A stretch of DNA of 64,000 nucleotides, from assembly GCF_054482525.1 (NCBI RefSeq), contig NZ_CM137006.1; one strand, given 5' to 3'. Below are positions 2,288 through 27,476 of this stretch, in pieces. The notes under the pieces were generated by a model that saw only the letters and a program-made list of their open reading frames with translations, did not search any database and was not told where the DNA came from. A program made the translations under genes and the position numbers. The stretch's first letter is position 1; every line of letters starts with the position of its first letter.

Positions 2288-4924
2288 TTAACGACATTCA
2301 GCTGATAGCTGGGTTAATAACTGCTGCTGACTCTCTGGTGGCAGTTGATAATTGGCGACACAGTGAGCATTTTCCTCTTCTCCCCATTTCACCTGAACTT
2401 TTCCCGCTAAAGGCATTCCGCTGAGGTAAACCTGACCATTATCCGCAACAATGCCGCTACTCTGGCTACTCTCTGATGTCACCATCGCCCCAAACGGCAG
2501 CGGCTTATTATTGTGGGTTAGCGTCATGAGCAGTTTTATCCCAACGCGCGCTTTAAACTCTGCTCGCACTATCGCCCCACGAGTGGGAACAACGTTAGCG
2601 ACCGCGTTATCTAAATCGACGTTATCAGCCAGGGTATTGGTATCCAGCGCTACTCTGTTTTCCCGATATTCAGTGGCATAAGGCAGCACGGCATAACCGC
2701 GCCAGTCGGTACGCACCCCCGTCTGGTTTTCGACTTTTGCATCTTTTGCGCCAGGCGCTTTAACAAGCACTACCGTATCGTTTAACGGCTGCCCCAGCGT
2801 TACGCCATTGGCATGAGCCAGTACCCCACCGCTGACTCCGTAATAGAGCTGCTTAATATCATCGCTATGGCTGTAACCGATGTTGGCATTGCCGTAACCA
2901 CCGCGATAATTCAGCGTGGCGTAGCCTGTACTTCCGCTATTACCATCACCTCCCCCGGCGTAACCGGTTTGCACGCTATAGCTGAGGTTGTTGTCTTCCA
3001 GCAACGTACCGTATACACCGGCCAGATTGGTCATCCGACCGTTGAGATCGTGTGACATGCTGTAACTGGCACTGGCATGTCGCCACTGAGATTTACTGTC
3101 AGAACGCAGCCAGTGGCTGAAAGGAATATTGACGTTAAGCGCTAACATCTGATCCCGTCCTTTTTGCCAGGCGTTTTTCGTCAGGCTATAGCTGAGCGTC
3201 CAGTTGATATCTTCGAATGCAGTATTTAAACCAGCCTGGAATTGCTCATCGACATTATTCGTTCCCCAATAAGTTTGATGGCTACCACTCAAATACAGTG
3301 TTGATGAGCGCCCGAGTTGCTGAGTAACGGTGAGCTGTAATTTCCCGCGTTTGTTATAAGCGAGGTTGTAATAGTCGGTGAATTTCGGCTTAACCTGAAT
3401 AACTCCGTCCTGTGTTTCGATGTTGTAGCCATTCATTCGACTGTATGTTGTATCAGCGAAATTAAAATATCCGCTGGTCGAATAACGGTAACCCACTAAC
3501 TGAATATTCGTGCCTGACTCATTGAGCGATTTGTTATAGAGAAAACGCACCGATTGTCCGTCATGCTGACTGTCATCGGGAAGTGTGGAATTAGCCTGCG
3601 TCATATCCACAGACAGAGCACCCAGTGCCCCCATGTTTTTCCCGATACCGAAATTAAAAGCACGATAACGATCCGCCAGTTGCGTTCCACCATATATTGT
3701 CCAGCCAGCCGGAAGGCCGTGGAGTAATGTACTCTGGAAAAAGCGGGGTTTTTCCTGTTGCGCATTTCCACTACGGTATTCTCCTGCCGTAATGGAATAA
3801 CGAGTATGCCCTTCACGTTGCAAAAGCGGGACTGACGAATAGGGTACGGTAAAAATCTGCGTGCTGCCGTCAGCCTCTTTGATCGTTACCTGCAAGTCAC
3901 CACTATTACCTGCGGCATAGATATCGTTGATGGTAAAAGGCCCCGGTGGCACCGTACTATTATAAATGTCATACCCATTTTGTTTAATAGTGACCTGTGC
4001 AGTACCACGAGCAATACCGTGGATCACCGGGGCAAATCCTCTTTGGCTATCGGGTAACATATTGTCATCTGAGGCCAATTGTGCGCCGCGAAAGTTAATA
4101 CCATCGAAAATATCGCCCTGAGTATAACCATCACCCAGCGTCAGCCGGGAACGTAACGGAATTATGTCTCGCTCAAGCCAGGTATTGATATGCTGCCATT
4201 TATTTTTGCTACCTGATGAACTGTCGCTACTGTTATAACTCCAGGTGGTATTGTCGCGTAAACGCCACGCACCAATATTTAACCCACTCTGTAGGTTTAA
4301 ATATGCATAATGGCTGTTACCCCCAATCCGATTCTGTACACTATTTCCGCTAAAATTATAATTGAGCAATCCGGCATTAATACCGGGATCCCATAACTCA
4401 GGAGGAATATAACCACGCGCGCGATTACTCATAAATGCCTGAGGGATCGTCAGGTTGAGTCGCTGCTGACCAACATCTAAATGCGCAGTAGCGTCATGGA
4501 TCATTGAGGTTAATGGCACGCAGGCATCATCCGCCAGCAGATTCATACCGGAGACAGAAGCCGTATTCAGCCCCATACCGGCAAGTTGCGCGCGTGTCAG
4601 GCAGGGAACAATCCCTTGTTCACTGTCGCCCGTATTAAATGTGACATCACGCGTTGCCATATAACCATTATTCAAATAGATATCGACACGATACGTCCCT
4701 GGCGGTAATTCTTGCCCATTCTCAAAACGCGATAAATCAGCCACAGCCTGGGGATCATCCGCTAAAAAACGCGGGTTAAAATAGAGTTCGGCAGATGACA
4801 AAGGTGCCTGTGCGGCAAAAGCACAAGCAACAAAGAACCGGACAAAAAAACCAGCCAAACGATGCTTACGAATATGCAAGCATTGTGTGTTTCGCTGGTA
4901 AAGTCTTAAATTCAGATATGACAT
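2288..4924 (-). CDS. fimD: Outer membrane usher FimD
   Basis: 878-aa ORF, usher family size and sequence; operon position. Confidence 0.95.
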   Translation of the reverse strand: MSYLNLRLYQRNTQCLHIRKHRLAGFFVRFFVACAFAAQAPLSSAELYFNPRFLADDPQAVADLSRFENGQELPPGTYRVDIYLNNGYMATRDVTFNTGDSEQGIVPCLTRAQLAGMGLNTASVSGMNLLADDACVPLTSMIHDATAHLDVGQQRLNLTIPQAFMSNRARGYIPPELWDPGINAGLLNYNFSGNSVQNRIGGNSHYAYLNLQSGLNIGAWRLRDNTTWSYNSSDSSSGSKNKWQHINTWLERDIIPLRSRLTLGDGYTQGDIFDGINFRGAQLASDDNMLPDSQRGFAPVIHGIARGTAQVTIKQNGYDIYNSTVPPGPFTINDIYAAGNSGDLQVTIKEADGSTQIFTVPYSSVPLLQREGHTRYSITAGEYRSGNAQQEKPRFFQSTLLHGLPAGWTIYGGTQLADRYRAFNFGIGKNMGALGALSVDMTQANSTLPDDSQHDGQSVRFLYNKSLNESGTNIQLVGYRYSTSGYFNFADTTYSRMNGYNIETQDGVIQVKPKFTDYYNLAYNKRGKLQLTVTQQLGRSSTLYLSGSHQTYWGTNNVDEQFQAGLNTAFEDINWTLSYSLTKNAWQKGRDQMLALNVNIPFSHWLRSDSKSQWRHASASYSMSHDLNGRMTNLAGVYGTLLEDNNLSYSVQTGYAGGGDGNSGSTGYATLNYRGGYGNANIGYSHSDDIKQLYYGVSGGVLAHANGVTLGQPLNDTVVLVKAPGAKDAKVENQTGVRTDWRGYAVLPYATEYRENRVALDTNTLADNVDLDNAVANVVPTRGAIVRAEFKARVGIKLLMTLTHNNKPLPFGAMVTSESSQSSGIVADNGQVYLSGMPLAGKVQVKWGEEENAHCVANYQLPPESQQQLLTQLSAECR

Positions 4925-4990: not shown

Positions 4991-5716
4991 TTATTCCATT
5001 ACGCCCGTCATTTTGGGGGTAAGTGCGCCATAATCATTTATTGTTCGGTAAGTAATATTGCTTCCTGCATCAGAAGGCAATTTAACCGTGCTTTCGCCCA
5101 TTGGAGGCACCAATGCATTTTCAAGAACCCGGGTTCCGGCATTCAACTCTGTTACCGTCAGGTAATAGGGTGTCGGGTTAATCAGCGTCAGAGAATTCGC
5201 GCTACGACGAAATCTTAATTTTTCTGCGGCCTGATCGGGTGGCAACGCTAATTTAGCCGGGCGATAGTACAGTTTAATGCGGCTGATAATTGCGAGCTGT
5301 AGCGTATTCTCAGTCAATTTTGATTTATCCATTGACGGAATCGCTTTAACGTTCATCCAGAATAAACTTTCCCGATCCTGTGGCAATTGGTTATTTGTTG
5401 CATCAAGAATACGTAAGGTATTCTCTTTTTTTCCCTTCATCGCAAACAGAGGTGGCGTCACGATAAAACGACCATCCTTTACACCATCGGCATTTTCCAC
5501 CCATGATTGAATTAAATAGGTGCTATTTTCATCATTATTTGTCACGGCAAGTTGCACTTGTTTTTGCCCTGCCGGATAAATTACGCGGGTCGCACCTAAG
5601 GCCACTCCCGCTTCAGCGCGTCCGGCAACCATCATTGCCATGAACATCAGGATACCTGCCAGCAAGCAGAATGTTATTTCCTGCGATTTCCTTACATTGA
5701 CGTTTTTATTACTCAC
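4991..5716 (-). CDS. fimC: Periplasmic pilus chaperone FimC
   Basis: 241-aa ORF with signal peptide; PapD-like chaperone; operon position. Confidence 0.95.
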   Translation of the reverse strand: MSNKNVNVRKSQEITFCLLAGILMFMAMMVAGRAEAGVALGATRVIYPAGQKQVQLAVTNNDENSTYLIQSWVENADGVKDGRFIVTPPLFAMKGKKENTLRILDATNNQLPQDRESLFWMNVKAIPSMDKSKLTENTLQLAIISRIKLYYRPAKLALPPDQAAEKLRFRRSANSLTLINPTPYYLTVTELNAGTRVLENALVPPMGESTVKLPSDAGSNITYRTINDYGALTPKMTGVME

Positions 5717-6292: not shown

Positions 6293-6356
6293 CGTTATTT
6301 TTATCGCACAAGGGTGGGCATCCCTGCCCGTAATGACGTCCCTGAACCTGGGTAGG

Positions 6357-6905
6357 TTATTGATACTGAACCTTGAAGGTCGCATCCGCATTAGCAGCAC
6401 CCGGGGTTGCAGCAGCGGTTGCAAAATAACGCGCCTGGAACGGAATGGTGTTAGTACCGTTATTCAGGGTTGTTTCTGCACTAAATGTCGCACCGTCCAG
6501 CGCCAGCGCAGCACCGGTTCTGTCCAGAATTTGCACACCAACGTTTGTTGCGCTACCTGCAGCAGAACTCTGCAGAGCCAGTACATCAGTATGCGTAGCA
6601 TCAATTGCCGTACCTAAGAAGGCAACAGCGGCTTTTGTGGCAACAGTGGTATCGCAATCATTCAGCTGAATGTTAAAACCAACAGCAGAGCTGGTTGCTC
6701 CAGCCTGCTTCAGGCTAGCGGTACGAACCTGTCCTAACTGAACGGTTTGATCAACAGAGCCTGCATCAACTGCGCAAGCGGCATTAACAACTTCCCCTTT
6801 AAAGTGAACGGTCCCACCATTTACCGTCGTAGTATCAGCCAGAGCCGCTGCGGAACTGAGGGACAGAGCCGACAAAACAACGATTGCCAGAGTTTTAATT
6901 TTCAT
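6357..6905 (-). CDS. fimA: Type 1 fimbrial major subunit FimA
   Basis: ORF 6357..7064 trimmed to [23 protein letters not shown]; recognised as FimA. Confidence 0.95.
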
Positions 6906-7023
6906 GCTGCTTTCCTTTAAAAAACTATTTCTAAATCGACATGGGCAGTCGTTCTGTACACTTTGTTTTGTCAACGAGTTTGACTGCCAACACTGCACAG
7001 TTTTCCCCCAAAAGATGAAACAT

Positions 7024-7337
7024 TTGGGGCCATTTTGACTCATAGAGGAAAGCATCGCGCACAAACTTTTTCAGTTTATTTGTTGGCTTGATATTCTACC
7101 GTTATCTTTATTTATAGATTTTTATATTGCATGAGGTGGTTTTTGGAGAGAAGAATGAGGAAGTTGCTTCGAGACACAGAAACGTTAGCTTTACATTTAG
7201 CGGAGGTGATGTGAAATTAATTTACAAGAGAAATAATTTACATATCAAACAGTTAGATGCTTTTTGTCGTTTTTTAATATTTTTATGCTTGAGAAAAAAT
7301 ACGTAACTTATTTATGATATGGACAGTTTGGCCCCAA
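7024..7337. promoter_or_regulatory. fimS: fimS invertible switch, 314 bp, bounded by 9-bp inverted repeats TTGGGGCCA (7024-7032) and TGGCCCCAA (7329-7337)
   Basis: Both inverted repeats are visible in the sequence at the expected spacing between fimA and fimE. Confidence 0.9.
7289..7318 (+). promoter_or_regulatory. sigma70-like promoter inside fimS (-35 TTGAGA at 7289-7294, -10 TATGAT at 7313-7318), firing rightward toward fimE (switch OFF)
   Basis: Hexamers read from the sequence with an 18-bp spacer; orientation is relative to fimA on the minus strand to the left. Confidence 0.6.
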
Positions 7338-7384
7338 TTGTCTTGTATTTATTTGTTTTTTAACTTTATTATCAATGAGTTAAA

Positions 7385-7981
7385 TCAAACCTCTTCTCTT
7401 TTTAATTTTTCGTTTATGAGATTATTTCTTTCCCATAATCCGGCAAAACGAGCAGCATTACTGGCGGTATAACGCACAGTATGGCGAATATTTCGATGCC
7501 CGAGATAATCCTGAATTAAACGGGTATCGGCACCACGCTCCGCCAGTTCATAACCACAAGCATGCCTTAACATATGAGGATGAGTCTGCGTTACGGTTCC
7601 AGCTTCAATACCGGCATCGCGAATAATGCGATAGGCCTGCTGGCGAGAAAGCCGACTCCCGCGGCGAGAAATAAATATAGCGTCGGTCCGGTCAGCGCCT
7701 TTCCAGTTAGCACGTTCCTGGGTCCAGCGTTCCACGGCTTCACGCTCATCAAAACGTAACGGGTGAACGGTAGAAAATCCGTTCTTCAGTCGGCGAATAT
7801 TTATTCGACCTTCATTAAGGTCAAGGTCCTGATAATGCAGATCAAGCAGTTCACTAATACGCATCCCATGCCGATATGCCAACAGAATAAGACAATAATC
7901 TCTGGCTCCCGTTGCCCCGTAACAAACCGCCTGCATCATGGCCTGAACTTCTTTACCGGTAAGATAACGACGTTTACTCAC
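7385..7981 (-). CDS. fimE: Tyrosine recombinase FimE (ON-to-OFF switching)
   Basis: 198-aa ORF; integrase-family C-terminal motifs (HxxR...Y); position next to fimS. Confidence 0.95.
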   Translation of the reverse strand: MSKRRYLTGKEVQAMMQAVCYGATGARDYCLILLAYRHGMRISELLDLHYQDLDLNEGRINIRRLKNGFSTVHPLRFDEREAVERWTQERANWKGADRTDAIFISRRGSRLSRQQAYRIIRDAGIEAGTVTQTHPHMLRHACGYELAERGADTRLIQDYLGHRNIRHTVRYTASNAARFAGLWERNNLINEKLKREEV

Positions 7982-8459: not shown

Positions 8460-9062
8460 CTATAAAACAGCGTGACGCTGTCTCCCTCTAGCTCTATCCC
8501 AGATGCCGTAAAAACGCCCTGCATTGCTGGCGGTATACCAGACTGTATGACGAATATTGCGATGCCCAAGATAATCCTGGATAAGTCGCGTATCTATTCC
8601 CATATTCGCCAAAGCAAAACCACACGAATGGCGTAACATGTGCGGATGAATCTCCAGTGATAACCCAGCATTACCACCAGAAGTCGAGATAATATGGTAA
8701 AACTGTTGCCGAGAAAGCGGATTCCCCTTACGTGATAAAAATACCCACTCGCTCTCAGCATGCGGATACGAAGTACGGATACTCAACCAGTTTTTTAAAG
8801 CCTGAACTTCTTTGTTCAATAGCGGGTGCGTTGTTGAAAAGCCTTTTTTTAATCGATGGATATATATACACTTTGCCTTAAGATCAATATCCGAAATCCT
8901 CAATCGACAAATTTCACTCGCCCGGAAACCATGAATAAAACAAAGCAAAGTCAGACAATAATTACGTGCTGCATGAGGCCCGGTATTTGCTGCTTTAAGG
9001 AGTGACTCGATTTCACTATGGGTCAGGAAGTTCCTTTTTTTGTTATCAGCCTTATTCTTCAT
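8460..9062 (-). CDS. fimB: Tyrosine recombinase FimB
   Basis: ORF 8460..9092 trimmed to MKNKADNKKRNFLTHSE; paralogue of FimE. Confidence 0.93.
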   Translation of the reverse strand: MKNKADNKKRNFLTHSEIESLLKAANTGPHAARNYCLTLLCFIHGFRASEICRLRISDIDLKAKCIYIHRLKKGFSTTHPLLNKEVQALKNWLSIRTSYPHAESEWVFLSRKGNPLSRQQFYHIISTSGGNAGLSLEIHPHMLRHSCGFALANMGIDTRLIQDYLGHRNIRHTVWYTASNAGRFYGIWDRARGRQRHAVL

Positions 9063-13409: not shown

Positions 13410-14154
13410 TACACGCTATTCCTTGTGCAATCAGGCCAGCTCGCAATAAAGGCAGCAACTATGCTTGAAGCCCCTTTCACCGCCGGATAAATAATATCCT
13501 TACGGCAATTGGTAACCGTATAAAATGCTTGATGTTTTGAACTGCCGTTGACGAAGATGAAGTAATCTGCTTTTTTGGCAGCATCCAATAACGCATCAAT
13601 GGCAACGCGATCATTGTTGAGCTCAATTCATAGCGCCGGATACAATTTCAATAAGGCGTCTTTACCACGTTGCGTGGCATTTTTGTAATACTGTAAAACA
13701 CCCGCTTTTTCCCGCGGAGATTCCGATACAACGGAGACGTTACGCTTGCTGGTATGGTTTCTGTCGGGAGGGTACTACCGATATCCTTACAAACGTAGAG
13801 CTGTTCCATCATGCGTGCCAACAACAGCATACGGATATCCAACCGTTCCCAGCGACGTAGGAACATCTCGCGAATGTTAATCCAGTACTGTAGTCGGCGA
13901 TCGCTATCACCAGATTCACAATCATAAAGAACCTCTGCAATATCAAGAGTATACTTGAGAATTTATGTCGATTCATTTTTCGTGCACAACATTTCGATAG
14001 CTTCGAGGGCATCATGGTATTCTTTGTGACTGAAGGTCCATGAAAGTAACGTATCCAGAATAATCCCTGTAGTTGCCAAAATGAGTTGATCACTACACAA
14101 TGATTTGTTTGTACAGAAGGAACGATTATTATATGTTCTTGTAGGGCAGAGCAC
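13397..14154 (-). pseudogene. Degraded gene remnant: four short minus-strand ORFs in different frames at the left island border
   Basis: Four abutting 60-95 aa ORFs with no intact long frame; could be a yjhR-like remnant but its identity is not determinable by eye. Confidence 0.35.
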
Positions 14155-14271
14155 GTTGCTACGGTAACAGCGTTGAAGATAATTTGGTCGAGACTGTAGT
14201 GGCCCAGTTTAAAAGGTAGCAGAATTTTAAAAGTGTCAGGTGCATAGAATTAAAAAAATGGAACTATAAAA

Positions 14272-16005
14272 ATGGAAATCATGTTACCAAAAAACACCTT
14301 ATATGACAGAGAGCAAAATGTCTTTTTTGAAAAGGTTACGGCCTTAATTGGCGAAAATGGTGCTGGTAAGTCCTCGATTTTACAATCCGTATTTATTAAC
14401 TGTTTAACAAAAAAATATCTACCAGAAACAAAGGTTGTTTGTTTTTCTTCTGGACAAAATGAGAAATACTCAACGTACTTCTCTGATTATCTTTCTCATG
14501 AAAGGCAAGCAAATAGAGGTCTTAACTTAGATTGTTGTTATTACGATAAATCATGGTCAAAGTTACTAATATTCATATCCACAATTTGTAAATCAAATGG
14601 TCTTGTTAGAAATTTTTTATGTGAGAAAGGCTATATTGATGTATCAGATGATAAAAATGATGATATATCAAGCAAGCTTACATTGACGGTCCGAGTAAAT
14701 TCGGCTTACGTTAATCGAGTAAAAATGGCATTAGCACAAGAAGAACAAGGTATTGAAAATACTTTAAGGTATTCAGCTTATCATAGGACTTTAGAAAGTT
14801 TCATTAATAATATTGTTAATGCTGATTATGATTTCGAGTCTCCACTTGAAGCTCAAGAGATCTTGCTAACTCATTCAAATTTTTTCAATCCATCATTTGA
14901 GGAAGCAGAAGATTCCTTTTTTGATCCTATCATAACATTTTTCACTCAAGCAGCAGATAATGATTACTTTATAATAAAACCATCATTACAGCTAGAGTTT
15001 AAAAATAATATCGAACTGAATGATATTAGTGATGGGGAATATCAAGTACTCTTTTTATACTCTCTGCTTGATATTTTTGATAGTCCTAATACTTTATTCT
15101 TATTAGATGAGATAGATTCCCATTTACATTACAAGAATATTGAGCTCTTATGGCATCGACTACATAGTATTAATGGTTATGCGATAACAACCACCCATCT
15201 ATTAGACTCAATTACAGCTACTGATAATGATTTTAAAAACTTAAAGATTGTTGATAAAGGAAAAATAAAAGAAGATGATAAAATAAAAACTATAATAGAA
15301 CGTTTATCTGTCTTGACAAGAATATCAGACGTACAGTTCGAAGTGTGTCGTAAACTAGAAAACATAGTATTGATGGATGATTATAATGATTGGACTATTT
15401 TTTATGCCTTAGCAAAGAAAAAAGGACTTGATGTATCAAAGTTAGATGGCCTCCATGCAATAAAACAGTCCTCTGGTTACGATAATTTAAATCAAGAGTT
15501 CGCAAAACCAAAAATAGAGTGGATTAATTCGCTTTCAAATGTAAATACTGATAAGAAAGTCAAAAAAATATTCATGATCTGCGACAAAGATGAGGCTCCA
15601 ATTACCTATCAGAAAGATGGAGTTCAAGTCAATGGAAGTGAATATTCAAAACATATAGCGAAGTTAGAAAATAAAAACAAAAATAAAATATATCTCCTTG
15701 CTTGGAAAAGAAGAGAAATAAAAAACTACTTATTATCTTATACGGCATTGTCTCATCATGGATTTATCGGGCAAATAAACAATGGTGATCTGCCGGCTAA
15801 CAGTTATTTAAAAGAAAACAATCCTGGAGATAATTCAGCAATTAGCCGGCTTAATGTAAAACATTGCATCACAAAAATAATTGATTCTGATGGTATAGGA
15901 TTAGATATCTCAAAACTTTACTCATATATAGAACTTATACCACCTGCTGAGATCAGTGAAGATATAGTGAACATGTACAATTTTTTGGTGGAGAAATTAA
16001 AATGA
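14272..16005 (+). CDS. OLD-family-like ABC ATPase (577 aa) with a possible C-terminal TOPRIM/DUF4435-like region; candidate restriction component
   Basis: Walker A GENGAGKSS, ABC signature-like ISDGEYQ, Walker B LFLLDEID, H-loop TTTHLL, C-terminal DxD-like ICDKDE; about 30% GC; stop overlaps the next start (ATGA). Confidence 0.7.
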   Translation: MEIMLPKNTLYDREQNVFFEKVTALIGENGAGKSSILQSVFINCLTKKYLPETKVVCFSSGQNEKYSTYFSDYLSHERQANRGLNLDCCYYDKSWSKLLIFISTICKSNGLVRNFLCEKGYIDVSDDKNDDISSKLTLTVRVNSAYVNRVKMALAQEEQGIENTLRYSAYHRTLESFINNIVNADYDFESPLEAQEILLTHSNFFNPSFEEAEDSFFDPIITFFTQAADNDYFIIKPSLQLEFKNNIELNDISDGEYQVLFLYSLLDIFDSPNTLFLLDEIDSHLHYKNIELLWHRLHSINGYAITTTHLLDSITATDNDFKNLKIVDKGKIKEDDKIKTIIERLSVLTRISDVQFEVCRKLENIVLMDDYNDWTIFYALAKKKGLDVSKLDGLHAIKQSSGYDNLNQEFAKPKIEWINSLSNVNTDKKVKKIFMICDKDEAPITYQKDGVQVNGSEYSKHIAKLENKNKNKIYLLAWKRREIKNYLLSYTALSHHGFIGQINNGDLPANSYLKENNPGDNSAISRLNVKHCITKIIDSDGIGLDISKLYSYIELIPPAEISEDIVNMYNFLVEKLK

Positions 16006-17909
16006 ACACCTCTTTATTTGAAGATCTACTTACACTAATCAAGAAAAAGAGTTCGATAAGAAATACAGAGCAAGCAGTAGAGTTAATTTCATTATTTATT
16101 TTTTTACATTATATAAAATTATATCTTTATGAAAATGATAAAAGATTTTCAGATATAAAAAACATATCAAGCAACAACATTAATGAAATTAAATATTATT
16201 ACCAGCAACTATATGAAAGTTTTATTTTCTCGATAGATATAAAAAATATAAACCACGACATGCTTGAAAACCTCAGGAGTAAGATAGGTTTTTTAATTAA
16301 TAACATCAATGACCATGAAATAATTAAATATATAGATTATTCTATTTCGCAGATACATTCACTTACAGAATTCCATCAATATGCAAATTCTTATCAATCT
16401 TTAATTCTTAGGATGGTTAATGAATCGGGTCGTTCAGGTGAATATGTTACTCCATCTGCTTTAGTTCAGCTCATGGTTGAAATGTTATCACCTACAGATG
16501 GCACATCAATCTACGACCCAGCATGTGGAACTGGGGGTTTATTAATAGAGTCAGCACGATATATTAAAGGCAACAGTTTAAACAAAAACTTAAATTTAAA
16601 TTATTCCCTTATTGGTAATGACACATCATCATTTGCCTGTCTAATCTCAATTGTTAACCTTTTAATCAATAAAGAATTTAATTTTGAAATAATACTAAAA
16701 GATAGCTTAGATATAAATTATAAGAATAAAAAATATGACTTTGTTTTAACTAACCCACCATTTGGGAAAAAGAGCTGTTGGGATAATATTCATATTGACA
16801 CACATTATAAAGGACCTAATCTAGACTATTACTTCCTGGAGCATGTTATTGACTCTCTCGCTGTTAATGGCAAAGCAGCCATGATATTACCAGAGCGTTT
16901 TTTATATGATGTGAGTGAAGAGTGCATCACTCTTAAAGATAAGATCTTCCAAAATTATAATTTAGATTGTATTTTATCTATACCGTCAGGTGCATTGCTT
17001 CCTTACACTGCAGTAAAATTATGTATTCTTTTTATAAGTAATTCTGGCCCAACAGATAGAATATTTTTCTACAATTTAAATAATGGTGAAAAATACTCAC
17101 GTACAAATATTATAAAATTCGATGATTTTATAGATTTTTTAGAGTCAGCAAAAAATAGAACAATAACTGAACACTCCTGGATTATCAATATTAGTGATAC
17201 ACCTTCATCTTATAACTTACTCTTAAAAGATAAAGAGCGAAACTCATATGAGTTTCTTAGTGATTCTATAGTTAACATTGAACAGACAATACGTAATAAT
17301 GAATTATTACTAACAGAGTTGTCTTTATTAAGAGAAAAAATAGCAATCTTAGAGTCAACAATAAAAAATCATTCGCATGAATATGAATTTGAGAGACTTA
17401 AAGTTGGAAATATTGCAATAGTAAAATCCGGAAATTTATTACAAAAAAACAGGCTGTTACCCACTGGACCAATTCCTGTATACGGTGGAAATGGAGTTAT
17501 TGGATATAATAATGAAGCAATGGAAAATGGTGAAAATATTATTATTGGTAAGGTCGGAGCTCTTTGCGGAAACGTTCGGTATGTTCAAGGTGATATTTGG
17601 GTGACAAATAACTCATTAATTATTAAGAATTATTCACCAAATAAAGTTTTAACACCCTACCTTGCAAAATTATTATCTACTTTAAACTTAAGAAGGCTCG
17701 CCGTTGGTACCGCTCAGCAATATTTAACCACGACACAAATAAAAAATGTAGAAGTTAGTATTCCACCTTTAACGACCCAGTATAAATTAAATATTTGGCT
17801 TGATGAGTTAGATAATACGCTTGAACAATATAATAATCTCATTGAAAAAATAATGAATGATAAGCGAGAACTTAAAGAGAATTTGTATAAAGGTCTTTTA
17901 ATAGAATAG
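16002..17909 (+). CDS. Gamma-class N6-adenine DNA methyltransferase fused to an HsdS-like target-recognition domain (635 aa)
   Basis: Motif I DPACGTGGLL followed by motif IV NPPFG; C-terminal region resembles type I specificity-subunit TRDs; AT-rich; coupled to the upstream ATPase. Confidence 0.75.
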   Translation: MNTSLFEDLLTLIKKKSSIRNTEQAVELISLFIFLHYIKLYLYENDKRFSDIKNISSNNINEIKYYYQQLYESFIFSIDIKNINHDMLENLRSKIGFLINNINDHEIIKYIDYSISQIHSLTEFHQYANSYQSLILRMVNESGRSGEYVTPSALVQLMVEMLSPTDGTSIYDPACGTGGLLIESARYIKGNSLNKNLNLNYSLIGNDTSSFACLISIVNLLINKEFNFEIILKDSLDINYKNKKYDFVLTNPPFGKKSCWDNIHIDTHYKGPNLDYYFLEHVIDSLAVNGKAAMILPERFLYDVSEECITLKDKIFQNYNLDCILSIPSGALLPYTAVKLCILFISNSGPTDRIFFYNLNNGEKYSRTNIIKFDDFIDFLESAKNRTITEHSWIINISDTPSSYNLLLKDKERNSYEFLSDSIVNIEQTIRNNELLLTELSLLREKIAILESTIKNHSHEYEFERLKVGNIAIVKSGNLLQKNRLLPTGPIPVYGGNGVIGYNNEAMENGENIIIGKVGALCGNVRYVQGDIWVTNNSLIIKNYSPNKVLTPYLAKLLSTLNLRRLAVGTAQQYLTTTQIKNVEVSIPPLTTQYKLNIWLDELDNTLEQYNNLIEKIMNDKRELKENLYKGLLIE

Positions 17910-17989
17910 ATCACAGTAGCAGGGTGTCCACAATACACCCTGCTACTGGTTGCAAGTAAGTTGCAATATCTGTACTGCTGAAGCTACGA

Positions 17990-20900
17990 TTAATAATGCT
18001 CCTCAATATACCCATACGCCTTCTGGAACAACTCTTTATCTTTCCCTAGTCCAAACTGGGCCAAGGTCAGCAAAAGCGCCTTTTGGATTTCGCGCGGGCC
18101 ACTGTTAGAATTTTGCCAGCCATCAAAGCGGGTAGCTTTCACAATTTTATCAATTTGCTCTACAACATCACCGATTAACTTAGGGGTAGTTTCCGGACGT
18201 GTTTCGAGGAAAAGCTTAGTCAACGCCTGTTTATTATCAGCTTCAGTTACTGGACGCTCGCCCGTTTCGCGCTCGGCTTGAACGGTATCTTTCGCTGCAT
18301 CCAACAGGCCTTTCAACCAGTCAATGGCCTTGATAACACCAGCTTCATAGTCCTGACGCAGTTTTTCAAGGCGCTCGCCCAATGCCACAAATTTAGGATC
18401 ATGACTGCCGCGCAAACGTCCCATAAGATCAATCTCCAGGCGTTTAGCACGTTGTTCCTGCTCTTTAGCGGTCAGGGTAAAAATAGCGTGCTCGTCCATG
18501 ACCAACTCGTCAATATCATCGCGAATACGATTGATATCAGTATGCTCATGGATCATCTTGATTGTTTCGGGGCCAAGGGCAGCCCAAACAAGCGCACCTG
18601 TCTGCCCTACCGGACGCACCGATTCATAAATTTGCGCCAGCCATTTATAGTCCTGACGATAAGGGGTCAAAAAAGGGTCTGGGTTGATAGCTGACCATAA
18701 CTTGGATAACACACCAAAGCTGGCAGCGAATTCATCGCGCTTCTCGTTGGTCGGCAGGCATTCCTGCGCGGCCATAATACCTTCAAAACCAGCTATGGAC
18801 CGATCCACACCAGGGAAGAAGGACAAACATTTATTCAGTTGTAACGGCAATAGCTCTTTAAATGCCTCAATTCCCTCTACAACTCCTTCAATTTCTTCAG
18901 GGTTATAGGCCAGAGCGGTACGCAGATTTTCGAAAACGCCGAGGTAGTCGATAATTAATCCCATGTCCTTGCGTACAGTATCGGTTTCGTACAGCCGGTT
19001 AGTTCGGCACATGGCCTGCAGAAGGGTATGATCGCGTAGAGGCTTATCGAGGTACATGCAGTAGCAAATCGGGGCATCAAAGCCCGTAAGCAGCTTGGCG
19101 GTTACGATAATAAGCTGTAATGGATATTCAGGATCTTTAAAGCACTCAATTAGATCCTTTTGCACCTGCTCTTCGGCATCGATGTGCTGCCAGCGTTCAA
19201 AATCGACTTGTTTGACAGGCAGCTCCAACTCATCATGCCATTTAAGCCAATCCTTGTTGAGCTTGTCTTTTTTGCCACCCTCTTCAACTTTAATCGGAGC
19301 CTGGTCAACGTTCATAACCACTTCAACTGCATCAAAACCAAGCTTTTCACCGAGCAAATAATACATCTGCACACAGGCTTCGCGATCGTATACCACAACC
19401 ATGCCTTTCATCTTTTTCGGCATAACATGGTTGGTAAAATGCTCAGCAATATCATTACTCACCGCAGCCATACGTCTGGGAGATTTCAGCATAATAGCCA
19501 GCTTGCCGGCACGTCTGGACAATGCTGCTTTTTCTTCTTCATCCAGGTTGTTTTCGGTAGCCAGTTGCTCGAACTCTTCATTGATGGCATCACGATCCAC
19601 TCGGAGTTCAGCCAGCCGAGGTTCGAACTTCACCGGGTTAGTTGCGCCATCCCGGATCGACTGCTTATAGCTATAGCGGCTCATATAGCGACCTGGATCT
19701 TCTTCGGCACCGAACAATTTGAACGTATTACGATCAATGCCAGAAATCGGAGTACCAGTCAGGCCATAGAAGTGGGCATTGGGCAACGCCCAGCGCATTT
19801 TCTCGCCTAATCCCCCTTCCTGTGTACGGTGAGCTTCGTCAACCAACACAATGATATTGTCCCGGTTGTTCAGGCCATTAGGGTTGCTATCGTCAATTTC
19901 GATATCTTTAAATTTAAAGATGGTGGTGATTAAAATGCCACGGCTGTCTTGTTCAATGTATTCACCCAACTTTTTGCAGCTTTGCACTTTAATCAGATTC
20001 TTAACGTCGGCTCCACCAAAGGTCTCGTTAATTTGGCTGTCCAGATCTCGCCGGTCCACAACGATAAGTACCGTCGGGTTTTTTAACGCATTATCGGCAC
20101 GTAGCATTTTGGCGGCGTAAAGCATCAACAAGGATTTACCCGATCCCTGGAAATGCCAAATAAGACCTTTTTTTGGATAGCCTCTGCGAACACGCTCAAC
20201 AATTTGTTTTGCAGCTTCAAATTGCGGATAACGCGGCAAGATTTTAACGCGTTTAGGTGGAGTATTTTTGCCCGTTTTGACGGTTGAAAATAATGCAAAA
20301 GATTCCAGTAACTGCAATAAGGTTTGCGGATTTAACAAACTCTCACAGCTATTGAGTACCGATGCCAGACCCGGCAAAATTTCATCACGAAGCTCAGTAT
20401 TATGCCAGGGTCCCCAGTCTTTAACTCGGGCATTAATGGCTCCATAGGCAAAGGTTTTACCTTCGCTGGCAAAGCACAGCAAGTTAGGTACAAAGAAAGA
20501 TTCAACATTTTTCCAGTAGTACTTTTTGCCACCCATGAAATCGGCAGCACCGTCTTGCCAGGTCACGCTGGGGCGTGTTGCGGTTTTAACTTCGCCTACT
20601 ACCAGTGGCATGCCGTTCACATAAAGAACAATATCAAAATAGACTTCAGTGGCCGCGATATAGTGAACCTGCTGCGCCACTACAAAGTGGTTGTTCTCTA
20701 TATTGTCAAAATCAATCAGATTGATGGTGATATGGTCGCCATTCTTACCAAAAGGCAAGGTTTTGTCGGCCATCAACCATTCCTGGAAGTTTTCATTGGC
20801 CTTTACCAAGCCGGTATGGCGGGCTTCTAAAACCACTCCTCGCAGTTTGTAAATGACCTCATCGGCATAGTCAGGCTGTCTGCCGATATCAGGGTTTAAC

Positions 20901-21070
20901 GAACAAAGCGCGTCTTTTAGCCACTCATCAACGAATATATCCTGCGCTTGTTTAGGCAGGTTTTCACCGTGGCAGTAAGTCCACTTGACTCCGCTTAAAC
21001 CTTTTAAACGGTCGATAATTCCATTTTCTGTGACGGTTTGTTCGTTAAACATTTTATATTTCCTTATCAA
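17990..21070 (-). CDS. hsdR: Type I restriction enzyme R subunit HsdR (alternative start at 21052)
   Basis: 1026 aa; Walker A GSGKS and DEAH box (VDEAHRTQ); recognisable HsdR N-terminal nuclease region; operon with hsdM/hsdS. Confidence 0.9.
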   Translation of the reverse strand: MIRKYKMFNEQTVTENGIIDRLKGLSGVKWTYCHGENLPKQAQDIFVDEWLKDALCSLNPDIGRQPDYADEVIYKLRGVVLEARHTGLVKANENFQEWLMADKTLPFGKNGDHITINLIDFDNIENNHFVVAQQVHYIAATEVYFDIVLYVNGMPLVVGEVKTATRPSVTWQDGAADFMGGKKYYWKNVESFFVPNLLCFASEGKTFAYGAINARVKDWGPWHNTELRDEILPGLASVLNSCESLLNPQTLLQLLESFALFSTVKTGKNTPPKRVKILPRYPQFEAAKQIVERVRRGYPKKGLIWHFQGSGKSLLMLYAAKMLRADNALKNPTVLIVVDRRDLDSQINETFGGADVKNLIKVQSCKKLGEYIEQDSRGILITTIFKFKDIEIDDSNPNGLNNRDNIIVLVDEAHRTQEGGLGEKMRWALPNAHFYGLTGTPISGIDRNTFKLFGAEEDPGRYMSRYSYKQSIRDGATNPVKFEPRLAELRVDRDAINEEFEQLATENNLDEEEKAALSRRAGKLAIMLKSPRRMAAVSNDIAEHFTNHVMPKKMKGMVVVYDREACVQMYYLLGEKLGFDAVEVVMNVDQAPIKVEEGGKKDKLNKDWLKWHDELELPVKQVDFERWQHIDAEEQVQKDLIECFKDPEYPLQLIIVTAKLLTGFDAPICYCMYLDKPLRDHTLLQAMCRTNRLYETDTVRKDMGLIIDYLGVFENLRTALAYNPEEIEGVVEGIEAFKELLPLQLNKCLSFFPGVDRSIAGFEGIMAAQECLPTNEKRDEFAASFGVLSKLWSAINPDPFLTPYRQDYKWLAQIYESVRPVGQTGALVWAALGPETIKMIHEHTDINRIRDDIDELVMDEHAIFTLTAKEQEQRAKRLEIDLMGRLRGSHDPKFVALGERLEKLRQDYEAGVIKAIDWLKGLLDAAKDTVQAERETGERPVTEADNKQALTKLFLETRPETTPKLIGDVVEQIDKIVKATRFDGWQNSNSGPREIQKALLLTLAQFGLGKDKELFQKAYGYIEEHY

Positions 21071-22241
21071 TCATAGCTTGGCGCAGTTGAATAATTTTCC
21101 CCAAGGATTCATTGTGCCTATAAATATTCTCATACGAACACTTAAACGTATTAATGATTGATGCTTGAATATCGAAGGGAGGAATAGGAATTTGAATTTT
21201 TAAAAAGTTATCTTTATTTATTTTCTTCATACTTCCGCTAGTTCCAGCAGCAATACCTTGAATAGCTCGACGGCCATATGGAGACATCAGATAGTACATT
21301 AAAAACTCTTTTTTAATAAATTTTTCGTCAACAGCCAATCTCCACATCGTGTCTGGGAAAATCGTATTCCCATTGCCAGTCGATCCTTTATATTTTCCAA
21401 CTAAACCAACCAACTCCGCTGTATTAGAACGAGAGATTAACAAATCACCATCATTGCATGTTTTTCCTTTTAAAAAATGATCTTCTGTAATATTTTTTAA
21501 AGTAGTTTCTCTGAATCCTGATTTCGACAAACTATTTAGGTTCAGGACATAGTACCCAGTCCCGACTGCGGTTTCAACAGGAGAATATCCCCCTTCTGGA
21601 GAATCAATTAAAACATCTTTAATAGAACCAAAAGTCCATCCAACCGGAAGAGGAACACATTTATTCTCCCTCGAATCAAAGTAGTTATCAAAAGTCCGTA
21701 GACCAATAGCATATAATAATCTTTTAGCTGCTTTGAGAGCACTTAAATATAGAAGTTCTTTCTTTGCTAACGAATCAAAGATTATTAATGACGAGTATTG
21801 CTGTTCAATGCTCGGTATATTAACTTCTAGTTTATTTAAATCACTCCATTTTATTCGCGATGATAGCGAGCCGGCGGAATTTGCAATCACCTTTTCCATA
21901 AAAGAGGTTGATTGCATCAAGTGGGGTAAGTACCCATCCAATAAGTAGTTGTTTTTCCTTGGTTTAATTACCATTGCATCAGCAGAGCAAATACCATTAA
22001 TAGGGCTCACCGACACCCTTTTTAAATATGTATTTCGTCTACTAAAAATTATTTCGCCACACTTTACCTTAAAGGCTTGTGTTTTCAATTCAACGTCAGC
22101 CCCCCAATCATGAACATAAAAATAACCAGATTTCAAATGTTCCAACCCAATAAAATGCTTAGCATCGTCGCTTGTTGGGGAGATTCTAACCATAACCTGT
22201 TCAGCAAGATCACCAAATGTAACATTTCTTTTATTATTCAT
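21054..22241 (-). CDS. hsdS: Type I restriction-modification specificity subunit HsdS (start uncertain; ORF extends to 22292)
   Basis: About 400 aa, consistent with a two-TRD specificity subunit; lies between hsdM and hsdR with overlapping ends. Confidence 0.8.
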   Translation of the reverse strand: MNNKRNVTFGDLAEQVMVRISPTSDDAKHFIGLEHLKSGYFYVHDWGADVELKTQAFKVKCGEIIFSRRNTYLKRVSVSPINGICSADAMVIKPRKNNYLLDGYLPHLMQSTSFMEKVIANSAGSLSSRIKWSDLNKLEVNIPSIEQQYSSLIIFDSLAKKELLYLSALKAAKRLLYAIGLRTFDNYFDSRENKCVPLPVGWTFGSIKDVLIDSPEGGYSPVETAVGTGYYVLNLNSLSKSGFRETTLKNITEDHFLKGKTCNDGDLLISRSNTAELVGLVGKYKGSTGNGNTIFPDTMWRLAVDEKFIKKEFLMYYLMSPYGRRAIQGIAAGTSGSMKKINKDNFLKIQIPIPPFDIQASIINTFKCSYENIYRHNESLGKIIQLRQAMIDKEI

Positions 22242-23739
22242 TATTATATTTCTCTCTATCAATTTCATAGCCAATGCTATCCAAGCTATCAAACAATACC
22301 TTGATATTTCTTTTGAGTTTTACGCTACTGACTTTCCATGATTCGATAGCATGCTGAATATCATTCATTTTGACATTGTTTTGAGATTTCACATAAAGTG
22401 AAATCGATAAATTATAGAAATTTTCTTTAATAGCTTCGATATCCACTAAAGCGGTTATGTCGTTTTTTTTCTCCGGATTAAAATAAGCCTCGCATAATAC
22501 TTCCAAATCATCATCAGATAGGCGACTATGGGCACGTTCACGGGTAACATACTCAACCCCGTTGATAAACAAAACCTTATTTTTGCGTTCAGCAGGTTTA
22601 TTGCAATTAAGCACCACCAAGCAAGATTCCATCGGCGAGTTGTAAAACAGATTTGGTCCCAAACCAATCACCGCTTCGATTATGTCGGATTCAATCACCT
22701 GTTTACGAATGGCTTGTTCAGAATCACGGAACAGTACACCATGCGGCCAGAGCATGGCAGCACGACCGGTGTCGGGTTTTAAACTTTTGATTATATGGGT
22801 ATAAAACGCATAATCAGCACAACCTTGTGGAGGCACGCCATAGAGATTACGCCCATAGGGATCGGCTGCAAACTTGTCACGATTCCATTTCTTAATGGAG
22901 TATGGTGGGTTAGCAAAAATCACATCAAACTGCTTGAGCCGATCGTTTTCAATAAACTTTGGCTCAGCCAAAGTATCACCACGCAGCACATCAAACTCTT
23001 CAATATCATGCAGGAACATATTCATACGAGCAATAGCGGAAGTCAGCAGGTTCACTTCCTGACCATAAAGGTGCACAGAGCGCCACTCTTCTCCTCTTGC
23101 ACGAAGATCCATCACTGCATTTAGCAACATCCCTCCAGTGCCACACGTTGGATCATAGGCTGTTTCACCCGGTTTTAAGCCCATAATGCGCGTCATTAAA
23201 TGCACGACTGTTCGGTTGGTGTAGAACTCTGCTGCCGTATGACCGGAATCATCAGCGAACTTTTTAATCAGGTATTCGTAGGCCTCACCAAGATCATCCT
23301 GAGCGACAGATTTAATACCGAGCGGTATTTTACTGAAATGTTCAATCAGATCAGCCAGCAGATGATCGGGCAGGCGCTCTTTATTGGTCCACTGCGCATC
23401 ACCGAAGACGCCATGTAAACGCGGATTATTGGCTTCAATTAGTCGAAGCGCATTCTGGATCGCTTCACCAATGTTTTTACTGGTATTGCGTACCTTTTCC
23501 CAACTGGCTTCAGAGGGAATATTGAAACGGTGAAACATCGGCATGGCGGCATATTCAGCATCACCTTCATGGAGTTCCAGCGCTTCGTTATATTCTTCCA
23601 GATAGACATCTGACAGGCGTTTGTAAAACAGCAACGGGAAGATATACTGCTTGTAGTCTGATGCGTCAATTTGGCCACGAAGAAATTCGGCGGCTCCCCA
23701 GAGCAGCTCTTCCAGCTTTTTATTACTCATAGTACTCAT
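22234..23739 (-). CDS. hsdM: Type I R-M methyltransferase subunit HsdM (copy 1, 501 aa)
   Basis: Motifs DPTCGTGGML and ANPPYS; HsdM-like N-terminal domain. Confidence 0.9.
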   Translation of the reverse strand: MSTMSNKKLEELLWGAAEFLRGQIDASDYKQYIFPLLFYKRLSDVYLEEYNEALELHEGDAEYAAMPMFHRFNIPSEASWEKVRNTSKNIGEAIQNALRLIEANNPRLHGVFGDAQWTNKERLPDHLLADLIEHFSKIPLGIKSVAQDDLGEAYEYLIKKFADDSGHTAAEFYTNRTVVHLMTRIMGLKPGETAYDPTCGTGGMLLNAVMDLRARGEEWRSVHLYGQEVNLLTSAIARMNMFLHDIEEFDVLRGDTLAEPKFIENDRLKQFDVIFANPPYSIKKWNRDKFAADPYGRNLYGVPPQGCADYAFYTHIIKSLKPDTGRAAMLWPHGVLFRDSEQAIRKQVIESDIIEAVIGLGPNLFYNSPMESCLVVLNCNKPAERKNKVLFINGVEYVTRERAHSRLSDDDLEVLCEAYFNPEKKNDITALVDIEAIKENFYNLSISLYVKSQNNVKMNDIQHAIESWKVSSVKLKRNIKVLFDSLDSIGYEIDREKYNNE

Positions 23740-25235
23740 ACCTCGAACCCTTCTTTGATAAGCAGGGCCTCCAGCTCCTCTTCTGCTTTTTCCAGCTCAG
23801 CCAGCTTCCGTTGAAAATCTTTGAGCGCCTCTTCCACAGTGATGGTTTCTTCTTCGAGTGGCTTTTGCACATAACGAGCAATATTTAGATTGAAGTCATT
23901 TTCTTCAATCTCCTTCAGAGGAACCCAGCGTGCAACGCCTTCGATTTCTTTTGCATCTGGCCCTTGTTGCGCCTGGTCATGATAGATTTGGTATATTTCA
24001 TCGGCCTGCTTGTTGGACAGCGTATTCTGCGCACGTCCCTTGGTATAGATTTCTTCAGCATTGATGATCAATACATGATCTTTATGCGCGGCCGGACGTG
24101 ATTTACGCAGCACCAAAATACACGCAGGAATCCCAGTTCCATAGAACAGGTTGGAAGCAACACCAATAATCGCCACAATGCGATTCTCTTGCAGTAATTT
24201 GGTTCGAATTGCCCCCTCTGCGCCGCCACGAAACAGCACACCATGAGGTAATACGACTGCCATACGTCCATTGTCGTTAAGTGAAGCAAACATATGCTGC
24301 ACCCAGGCAAAATCACCATTTGTTTTAGGCGCCAGGCCATATTGCTTACGGCCATAGGGATCGTTCGACCACAGATCGTATCCCCATTCTTTTAAGCTAA
24401 ACGGTGGGTTGGCAACAACGCAGTCAAAGGTTTCTAAACGATCGCTTTTTAAAAATTTAGGTTCGCGTAAAGTATCCCCTCGGACAATATCGAAATCTTC
24501 CTGTCCATGCAGGAACAGATTCATACGCGCAATAGCTTCCGTCGTTAAGTTCTTTTCCTGACCCTTGATTTTTAGTAAACGCGGATCACCACCATTTTCT
24601 TTTACATGGTGGATGGTCTCAAGCAGCATACCACCGGTACCACAGGCGGGATCGTAGACACTCTCACCGGCTTTTGGATCAAGAATGTTAACCATCAAAC
24701 GAACGATAGTTCGTGGGGTATAGAACTCACCTGCTTTCTTATTGGCTTTGTCTGCAAAGCGTTTGATCAGATACTCGTATGCGCGCCCCATATCATCGTC
24801 ACGGACACTAGAAACGCCAAGGTTCACCTTATTGAAGTGATTGAGTAACGTAGCCAGTAACTCATCAGAAAGGCGTTCTTTATTGGTCCAGCTGGCATCG
24901 CCAAAAATGCCATGCAGTTTAGGGTTTGCCAGTTCTATACCACGGAAGGACTCTTTTAAAGCCTGACCGATGTCCTTGGTCTCAGCGAAAACATCGCGCC
25001 AGTGGCAATTTTCAGGTATCTGAATACGGTGAAACATCTTGCCCTTGGCAAGCTCTGCATCCCCAACGCTCTCCATCGCATCAGCAAATTCTTCGTCATA
25101 CACGTCACAAATGCGCTTGAAGAACAAGATGGGGAAAATGTACGTTTTGTAATCTGACGCATCAATGGGCCCTGTAATAATATGGGCTGCATGCCATAGA
25201 TGGGCCTCGAGATCTTTTAGGTTAATCAGTGTCAT
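23736..25235 (-). CDS. Second, divergent HsdM-like N6-adenine methyltransferase (copy 2; extended ORF reaches 25337)
   Basis: Motifs DPACGTGGML and ANPPFS; about half of residues identical to copy 1 by eye; ATGA overlap with copy 1. Confidence 0.85.
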   Translation of the reverse strand: MTLINLKDLEAHLWHAAHIITGPIDASDYKTYIFPILFFKRICDVYDEEFADAMESVGDAELAKGKMFHRIQIPENCHWRDVFAETKDIGQALKESFRGIELANPKLHGIFGDASWTNKERLSDELLATLLNHFNKVNLGVSSVRDDDMGRAYEYLIKRFADKANKKAGEFYTPRTIVRLMVNILDPKAGESVYDPACGTGGMLLETIHHVKENGGDPRLLKIKGQEKNLTTEAIARMNLFLHGQEDFDIVRGDTLREPKFLKSDRLETFDCVVANPPFSLKEWGYDLWSNDPYGRKQYGLAPKTNGDFAWVQHMFASLNDNGRMAVVLPHGVLFRGGAEGAIRTKLLQENRIVAIIGVASNLFYGTGIPACILVLRKSRPAAHKDHVLIINAEEIYTKGRAQNTLSNKQADEIYQIYHDQAQQGPDAKEIEGVARWVPLKEIEENDFNLNIARYVQKPLEEETITVEEALKDFQRKLAELEKAEEELEALLIKEGFEV

Positions 25236-25478
25236 TGTTGTCTCTTTTCGATCCTGCAGTGCTTGAACTCTCAGCAACTCATGGATTTCACAGTAAAAAA
25301 GCAAGCAAAGCGATTCCACAACCACCTGAGCGTTCAATACGTATGACGCCTTTACCCAAGTTGCTTAAATCAAGGAAATTGCCAGAGATAATACTCTGGC
25401 ATCAGAATGATACCAAGTTGAAGGGCTGATTTCCGCATCAATACCTTGTGGTAATAGGGGATTACTCTTTTACCCTTA

Positions 25479-26046
25479 TTGGCGCAAAATGGCGGCATTT
25501 ACTCATTTCTCCATCGGAGCATCTTACGCGCTATAACCACTCTCGTTTTTTCCTATTCCCATGCAGATGAAGCACTACGCAATGAACTTGAGAAGCATCT
25601 CTCCCCGCTGAAGCGAACCGGGAAGATCACAACATGGCACGATCGCCGCATCGTTCCTGGTCAGGAGTTCGAACGTCAGATCGACCACTATTTTTCGCAA
25701 GCAGATATCATCCTGATCCTGATCCTGATCCTGATCAGCAGTGACTTTATTGCTTCTGATTACTGCTATCAGGTAGAGATGAAAAACGCACTGGAACGGC
25801 ATGACCGGGGCGAGGCGGTGGTCATTCCGGTAATTTTAAGAAACTGTGCATGGCATCAGTTATAATTCGGCAGCATTATGGCGGCGACTATCGACGGTAA
25901 ACCCATCACTAAGTTTGCCACCCACGATGAAGGCTACGTTCAGGTCGTCGAGGCCGTCTCGCGTGCCATTGCCCGGATGGAAGCCAAAAAACTACAGCAA
26001 ACCATACATATCCCTTCACCGGCTCCGGCGAATCCGATCTTTTAGG
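25479..26046 (+). pseudogene. TIR-domain gene interrupted by an in-frame TAA stop at 25863-25865; the same frame continues to TAG at 26044-26046
   Basis: TIR-like signature ...VFSYSHADEAL...SSDFIASDYCYQVEM...VIPVILRNCAW, then stop, then ...FGSIMAATIDGKPITKF... in the same frame. Confidence 0.6.
25710..25733. repeat. (ATCCTG)4 hexanucleotide repeat inside the TIR gene, encoding an ILILILIL tract
   Basis: Read directly from the sequence. Confidence 0.9.
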
Positions 26047-26445
26047 GAGTAGATTCCGTTTTTACACCGCGTTCAAGCAACCTTACTCTATCTGTTATAG
26101 CCAGGATAATGTTGTTCGAAACAGTATTAACGAAATTGTAAGCCTTGCTGATAACGGCCAGACTCTTGGTTTTCGTGCTCTGATGGGAGGCTTCAGTCGT
26201 GGAACTTCACGAGACGAACTATTGACCAATGAAGGTATGTCGGAACATCTCTGGGAAATGTTCTTCGGGCTAATCAAGCAAAGAATGTCCCGATAATTTG
26301 CCATATCACAGTCGGGCATACTGCCCGATTTTTGTGCTGTCATTATTGGCAATATCTCAATAGGCGTTGAGAAATGGTGCAATTTAATCTTGCCAGAGCG
26401 CTGTTACTTGGGGACGAAATGAATGGGCTCCTGCTGTAGTTACAG

Positions 26446-26475
26446 CAACGCCTGTATATACAAAAACAGGCGTTG
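26446..26475. terminator. 10-bp perfect inverted repeat (CAACGCCTGT / ACAGGCGTTG) just 3' of the Mrr-like gene; hairpin without a clear U-tract
   Basis: Inverted repeat seen in the sequence; no T-run on either strand. Confidence 0.35.
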
Positions 26476-26480
26476 CAAAT

Positions 26481-27476
26481 TCATGCAGGCAAATACGTTT
26501 TCTTAAGCGGCACCAACAGCTTAGTTTCAATATCCACCTGCTCATAGTTTTCCACTAACGCGCGTACCAAATCGTCCAGCGTCCATAGCGTCAACGGGAT
26601 TGTAGAACGATCGGCCTCATAACGCGCATCCTTGCTGAATCCGCCGGTACTAACATACAGCCCGCGATCGTCTTTATGACGGCCACCGATAAAGCTACGG
26701 ATTTGCTGGCTGCTCATCTGTTCCCGCCGGTGCTTCACCTCAACAATAATGCGCGGATTTTCAAACCCAAATCCGTCAGGCGAAGCAATGATGTCTTTCC
26801 CACGGTCAGCACCCGCAGGCGATACCTGAGTTTTATATCCCATGCTGCGTAACACGCCAGCGACCAGATTCTGCATCTCATCCCAGTCGAGACGGTTGAT
26901 ACGATCCTTGATGCCTTCAAAAGCGATCATTTCCATGTCGCGCAGAGGATTAGAAACGACCTCATCCTCTTCACCTGAAACAGGTACTTCCGGCACGATA
27001 TCTGAGACAGGCTTATTGCCCTGCACTAATTCATTCACAGCAAAATCAGGCACCTGAAAAACTGTCAGCGTTGAACCAAGGGTGTTTCTGGTTGCATCAC
27101 TCAGACTATCGCGCTTAATCTCTTCCGCATTCCACTTCACTTTACGGGCGATGCCCATGCCATCTTCAAGCCACTCGGCATGAAACTCAAAATCTGACGC
27201 TATTTTCCCTATTAAATAGGTCCGATTAGAAGGTGAATAAGTGATAGCCCAGTCGCCTTTCTGCATTTCATTCACAAAGCGCCAGACCTGAGAAGCTCCA
27301 GAACGAACTGTGCCTGGCTTAGTCTGTGGCTCAAGCTCCTGATACCGGGTAAACAACTGCTCTCTTGAGCATCCAGGTTTCACATAGGGAGCGAGCTGCG
27401 ACCAACCAATTGCAACAACCTGTTTGTCTCTGAAGTCGTCGTACAATTTTCCGCCATCACCGCGGATCATCCACAT
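26481..27476 (-). CDS. Mrr-like (type IV-like) restriction endonuclease with an uncharacterised N-terminal domain
   Basis: C-terminal PD-(D/E)xK-type signature ...GKDIIA...RIIVEVKHRR...QQIRSFIG typical of Mrr catalytic domains; start chosen at MWMIRGDGG (ORF extends to 27644). Confidence 0.65.
   Translation of the reverse strand: MWMIRGDGGKLYDDFRDKQVVAIGWSQLAPYVKPGCSREQLFTRYQELEPQTKPGTVRSGASQVWRFVNEMQKGDWAITYSPSNRTYLIGKIASDFEFHAEWLEDGMGIARKVKWNAEEIKRDSLSDATRNTLGSTLTVFQVPDFAVNELVQGNKPVSDIVPEVPVSGEEDEVVSNPLRDMEMIAFEGIKDRINRLDWDEMQNLVAGVLRSMGYKTQVSPAGADRGKDIIASPDGFGFENPRIIVEVKHRREQMSSQQIRSFIGGRHKDDRGLYVSTGGFSKDARYEADRSTIPLTLWTLDDLVRALVENYEQVDIETKLLVPLKKTYLPA

Follow-up and report, generated by a model that had tools for sequence, protein, structure and literature searches.

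The fim switch in a 64-kb genomic window is captured in the phase-OFF orientation, probably a reversible majority state

Orientation of the fim switch

The invertible element fimS, at 7024-7337 of the analysed sequence (a 64-kb stretch of DNA, hereafter the window), is almost certainly captured in the phase-OFF orientation, a reversible majority state in which the fimAICDFGH operon would be silent and the fimE mRNA would be shortened by Rho. An orientation read from an assembly is the majority state of the sequenced culture only. A reading of the sequence alone had proposed the OFF orientation, and had named comparison with reference sequences and orientation PCR with restriction digestion as ways to check it. 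We ran the published PCR and restriction assays in silico, which gives a result that is independent of which hexamers form the promoter. These types of assay track phenotype: orientation has been correlated with FimA western blots, agglutination phenotypes were also used for calibration, and locked-ON and locked-OFF controls were included, the locked-OFF controls being without FimA (PMC2978726).

The OL4/OL20 assay with BstUI is published as giving fragments of 539+187 bp for OFF and 433+293 bp for ON (PMC9993118). On the window, the 726-bp amplicon was cut into 187+539 bp, the OFF pattern, and inversion of 7024-7337 in silico changed the fragments to 433+293 bp, the ON pattern. The asymmetric marker in this assay is a unique BstUI site (CGCG) at 7056-7059, which lies near the fimA end as sequenced (PMC9993118). 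The Inv-1/Inv-2 assay with SnaBI, for which 440+161 bp is published for OFF and 403+198 bp for ON (PMC4374849, PMC11724981), gave 161+441 bp on the window, again the OFF pattern, and 405+197 bp, the ON pattern, when 7024-7337 was inverted in silico.

Three genomes that matched a query containing the inverted switch, F070, M8 and EC93, were used as positive controls. These real ON-assembled genomes gave 433/434+293 bp with BstUI and 405+197/198 bp with SnaBI, and MG1655 and SCU-102 gave OFF patterns in silico. The OFF orientation claimed from the sequence was thus upheld by both assays, with the inverted control and the real ON genomes reading as ON, and the proposed digestion check came out OFF with BstUI and SnaBI alike. 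The comparison with references agreed, the switch being collinear with that of MG1655 (OFF) and opposite to those of the ON-assembled genomes. HinfI digestion gave 423+179 bp for the native and 140+462 bp for the inverted arrangement; the published pairs (411+239 or 402+200 bp for OFF, 128+522 or 484+118 bp for ON; PMC6727828, PMC2636892) are reached from these values with one fixed primer offset per assay, which accords with OFF without being an exact replication.

Anatomy and identity of the switch

The element is the E. coli fim switch proper and not a relative of it, and all of its testable defining features were found. By definition, the fim switch is a 314-bp element within 9-bp inverted repeats, 5'-TTGGGGCCA (PMC8777976, PMC9820224). 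The fimA-proximal repeat, IRR, is a strand-exchange site at 7024-7032 on the plus strand and matches TTGGGGCCA exactly as published (PMC8777976, PMC9820224); the fimE-proximal repeat, IRL, is its exact reverse complement at 7329-7337 on the minus strand. The pair of exact repeats placed at these positions by the sequence-only reading is therefore real. No further copies of the repeat occur in the 64-kb window, and the span between the outer repeat ends is exactly 314 bp. Complementarity also reaches outward in weaker form, with 22 nt at 77% in the arms 7011-7032 and 7329-7350.

By chance, the 33% G+C stretch around fimS holds several further perfect 9-bp inverted repeats; neither the repeats nor the promoter is statistically remarkable as a bare pattern. 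The identification of fimS is secure because the exact published repeat sequence and spacing occur together with the gene context and with 98% collinear identity to the MG1655 switch, in which the promoter segment is identical.

The gene context is that of a complete fim locus. NCBIfam assignments place fimS directly upstream of fimA and downstream of fimE, in the order fimB-fimE-fimS-fimA with all genes on the minus strand. The type 1 fimbrial major subunit gene fimA, first gene of fimAICDFGH, lies at 6357-6905 (NCBIfam equivalog NF011741 FimA; score 184 bits, cutoff 140), and its product is identical to MG1655 FimA at 171/183 positions (182 residues and the stop). On the other side of a non-coding gap of about 480 bp lies fimE at 7385-7981 (NF007371, 451.7 bits), encoding a tyrosine recombinase that acts mainly ON-to-OFF, followed by fimB at 8460-9062 (NF007370, 458.2 bits), which encodes a tyrosine recombinase acting in both directions. 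The flanking genes had thus been correctly named, with fimA on one side of the switch and fimE on the other.

The entire type 1 fimbrial cluster is present in the window on the minus strand, and its structural ORFs have the expected lengths. The remaining genes are fimI (ending at 5753; NCBIfam, FimI 331 bits), fimC (4991-5716), fimD (2288-4924), fimF (1748-2281), fimG (1232-1741) and fimH (310-1221), the last gene of the operon. The 35-nt fimR2 small RNA, known in MG1655 as b4838 just downstream of fimA, has an identical sequence at 6312-6346 (minus strand), between fimA and fimI.

Promoter-like sites and the candidate Rho terminator

The best promoter-like site in the switch is at 7289-7318 on the plus strand and matches the consensus at 10/12 positions, with the -35 hexamer TTGAGA at 7289-7294, an 18-bp spacer and the -10 hexamer TATGAT at 7313-7318. 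It reads toward fimE and away from fimA, and is located 10 bp inside the fimE-proximal repeat. We take this site to be the experimentally mapped fimA promoter (PfimA), which Olsen and Klemm reportedly mapped in the switch in 1994. A full-text literature search for the promoter hexamers or the fimA transcription start yielded nothing usable. The PfimA segment is identical to that of MG1655, and the SnaBI site of the orientation assay (7300-7305) sits in its spacer.

A second, weaker match, TTGATA-18-TAAATT at 7248-7219 on the minus strand (9/12 positions), reads toward fimA. The sequence-only reading had given the correct hexamers, spacing, strand and direction for PfimA and had called it the only good promoter in the switch; it is the best site there, but not the sole one. 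The scan found 2 matches, compared with 1.9 ± 1.6 expected from shuffled sequences. The -35 hexamer of the minus-strand site overlaps the IHF-2 consensus at 7243-7255, and the site has probably arisen by chance, the DNA being AT-rich.

A C-rich, G-poor tract at 7127-7166 (minus strand), with 16 C and 1 G in 40 nt of the fimE-sense strand, is a candidate rut element of the fimE mRNA terminator. In 2005, Hinde et al. reportedly described an element of about 40 bp, rich in C and poor in G, at the centre of the switch. When the switch was inverted, the best 40-nt window on the fimE-sense strand contained only 10 C versus 7 G. The rut-like strand faces the fimE transcript in the as-sequenced orientation only, and the tract therefore gives further support for OFF without any identification of the promoter. 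A Rho-dependent terminator in fimS is reported to shorten the fimE mRNA in the OFF orientation only (PMC2647292, PMC5386303, PMC9993118). A scan for intrinsic terminators in 6850-7450 detected none, so a Rho-dependent mechanism fits, and the composition of the tract suggests that 7127-7166 may be the site at which fimE mRNA is terminated.

Integrity of the switch and its recombinases

The FimB and FimE proteins are 100% identical to those of MG1655. Their catalytic R-H-R-Y tetrads are complete, namely R47/H141/R144/Y176 in FimB and R41/H136/R139/Y171 in FimE, with residue numbering taken from PMC9820224. In E. coli, the IHF-1 site adjoins IRL and the IHF-2 site lies within fimS (PMC9993118). 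A match to the IHF consensus, WATCAANNNNTTR, is present at the expected IHF-2 position inside the switch (7243-7255, plus strand; match TATCAAACAGTTA), and another at the expected IHF-1 position between IRL and the fimE stop codon (7370-7382, plus strand; TATCAATGAGTTA); both are candidate sites, identified by consensus only. Judged from the repeats, the IHF consensus sites, FimB and FimE, the switch appears fully functional; the trans-acting factors that inversion requires (IHF, Lrp and H-NS) are encoded outside the window. With intact repeats and an intact FimB and FimE, the window gives no sign of a locked switch.

Frequency of the two orientations

Two versions of the 601-bp region 6880-7480, one native and one with the switch inverted, were searched against 5426 complete E. 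coli genomes, and orientation was called from a match over at least 80% of the query. As the invertible part makes up 52% of the query, 80% is out of reach for a genome in the wrong orientation, and the native and inverted counts are disjoint. The locus was present in 4719/5426 genomes; among these, the native (OFF) orientation was found in 4456 (94.4%) and the inverted (ON) orientation in 248 (5.3%). Both orientations thus occur among complete E. coli genomes. The OFF orientation was also found in MG1655 and in the nearest relatives SCU-102, FDAARGOS_1277, EC19, 19KM1776 and PCN033.

An OFF majority is expected from the dominance of FimE in inversion from ON to OFF, as well as from published accounts of aerated cultures as essentially all OFF (PMC2647292, PMC2978726). 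The finding is correct but already known and ordinary, OFF being the state of the reference and of most assemblies.

Four ON-assembled genomes were inspected for fim differences. FimE carries R185I in M8 and L146Q in EC93 and is wild-type in F070, and in 13TMH22 an IS3-family element lies between the ON switch and fimA (sequence coordinates 1258-2486). From four genomes, a number without statistics, there is a hint that FimE variants or fim lesions may be overrepresented among assemblies captured ON.

Alternative explanations

The orientation could in principle be OFF for a different reason, with the switch genetically locked and the strain afimbriate by fixed genotype, the situation in O157:H7 or Shigella lineages. 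The orientation itself accords with this, the close relatives SCU-102, 19KM1776 and PCN033 were also assembled OFF, and 129/129 available Shigella genomes were reported OFF in a group with fim lesions (PMC4374849). However, the 9-bp repeats are exact at the full 314-bp length, neither FimB nor FimE differs from its functional K-12 counterpart and both retain the tetrad, IHF consensus sites are present, and no fim structural ORF departs from its expected length. In 94% of genomes OFF is what the assembly shows by default, so that OFF relatives are uninformative. We consider a locked switch very unlikely. An assembly artefact, or an arbitrary consensus drawn from a roughly 50:50 population, is improbable as well. 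Phase variation does give mixed populations of which an assembler reports one orientation, but repeats of 9 bases fall far below the length that would mislead an assembler, and a junction-spanning read represents a real molecule. An OFF consensus is also what would be expected from aerated cultures, for which an essentially all-OFF state is reported (PMC2978726), and the 94:5 split over 4704 assemblies is a strong bias rather than an arbitrary outcome.

The as-sequenced orientation would really be ON if the fimA promoter were another minus-strand element, for example TTGATA-18-TAAATT at 7248-7219. This 9/12 match does read toward fimA, and promoter-like matches occur at chance frequency in AT-rich DNA, so the true promoter cannot be picked from sequence alone. 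Such a reading is nevertheless in effect refuted by the two phenotype-calibrated assays, which classify the orientation as OFF; real ON genomes are arranged oppositely, and locked-OFF controls were without FimA (PMC2978726). The overlap of the minus-strand -35 hexamer with the IHF-2 consensus and the rut-like tract, which fits OFF, argue in the same direction, and we assign this alternative practically no probability. A reversible OFF state with the switch parts intact is thus the reading that we retain.

Proposed mechanism

We infer transcription, termination and inversion in the sequenced strain from the literature; anatomy, orientation, integrity of the parts and frequency were computed. 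In the OFF orientation, transcription from PfimA would start near 7323-7325, cross IRL and enter the 3' end of fimE in antisense. The fimAICDFGH operon would thereby be without a promoter and silent, and the cells would be afimbriate. The fimE mRNA entering the switch would be cut short by Rho, which would lower FimE in OFF cells. FimB, aided by IHF and Lrp, would invert the 314-bp segment to ON via strand exchange in the 9-bp repeats, and the promoter would then occupy roughly 7043-7072 (minus strand), 138 bp upstream of the fimA start codon. FimE would return ON cells to OFF. The OFF orientation would accordingly be a reversible, epigenetic-like state and not a fixed genotype. Aerated laboratory cultures, and hence most assemblies, are OFF because FimE drives ON-to-OFF inversion and dominates FimB.

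Two additions to this scheme may be considered. Antisense RNA from PfimA in the OFF state might reach the last fimE codons (from 7385) and add to Rho in lowering FimE, or the minus-strand site at 7248-7219 might give basal fim transcription. We regard such a contribution as hardly likely; geometry is the sole support for either reading, and neither is specific to the sequenced genome.

Relation to known systems

The closest known system is fimS of MG1655 (NC_000913.3, between fimE b4313 and fimA b4314), which shares with the window the 314-bp length, the 9-bp repeats, the promoter segment and the OFF orientation. FimB and FimE are identical in the two and the switches are 98% identical, but the window differs from MG1655 by 11 substitutions inside the switch, at 12 positions of FimA and in the content of the upstream leuX island. 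The phase-locked-OFF constructs of the uropathogenic strain CFT073 (Gunther et al. 2002; controls in PMC2978726) have the same orientation and belong to the same SnaBI pattern class. In contrast to the window, where the repeats are wild type and inversion should be possible, these constructs carry engineered repeat mutations that block inversion. Klebsiella fimS with FimB-FimE, the ipuS/hyxS switches of uropathogenic E. coli and the Bacteroides invertons (Jiang et al. 2019, cited in PMC9993118) also place a promoter between inverted repeats and are flipped by tyrosine recombinases. Unlike the fimS of the window itself, they belong to other loci or other genera, as analogues or homologues.

The switch, its repeats and its orientation carry no feature in the curated MG1655 record (NC_000913.3 4540500-4544500) or in the PGAP-annotated genomes that we inspected. 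The MG1655 record also lists no promoter there. As fimS is unannotated in RefSeq records, the phase state of deposited assemblies is invisible in annotation. Annotators should record fimS and its orientation, and OFF in an assembly whose repeats and recombinases are intact should not be taken as a fimbriae-negative genotype. The 94:5 ratio of OFF to ON over 4704 complete genomes serves as a baseline; relative to it, an assembly captured ON would tell more. This is a textbook phase-variation system in which a culture grown in broth, like the K-12 reference, is expected to be OFF, and the result has little import beyond annotation.

Other features of the window

The region 13500-33088, between nanS and the tRNA-Leu(CAA) gene leuX (33004-33088, minus strand), forms a variable island dense in defence genes. 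It contains an AAA ATPase together with a methylase/specificity-domain fusion (14272-17909), a type I restriction-modification system that includes two M genes (17990-25337), a candidate PDC-S02 (26481-27644), the Mokosh protein MkoC at full length (27598-31113, 1692 bits) and, adjoining leuX, an HNH protein (31885-32664). SCU-102 carries an integrase in the interval from MkoC to leuX; in the window, no ORF of at least 150 aa was found there besides the HNH protein. The whole island is present in only about 100/5426 complete genomes, with the best matches in 19KM1776 (dog) and PCN033.

Two Rfam matches were also found in the window, and both look ordinary. A member of the 'Ysr276' antisense family is at 44103-44297 (minus strand), inside a 503-aa ORF (43545-45056) that is presumably pepA. 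A magnesium riboswitch leader is at 61896-62011 (minus strand), upstream of an 898-aa ORF (59106-61802) that is presumably mgtA.
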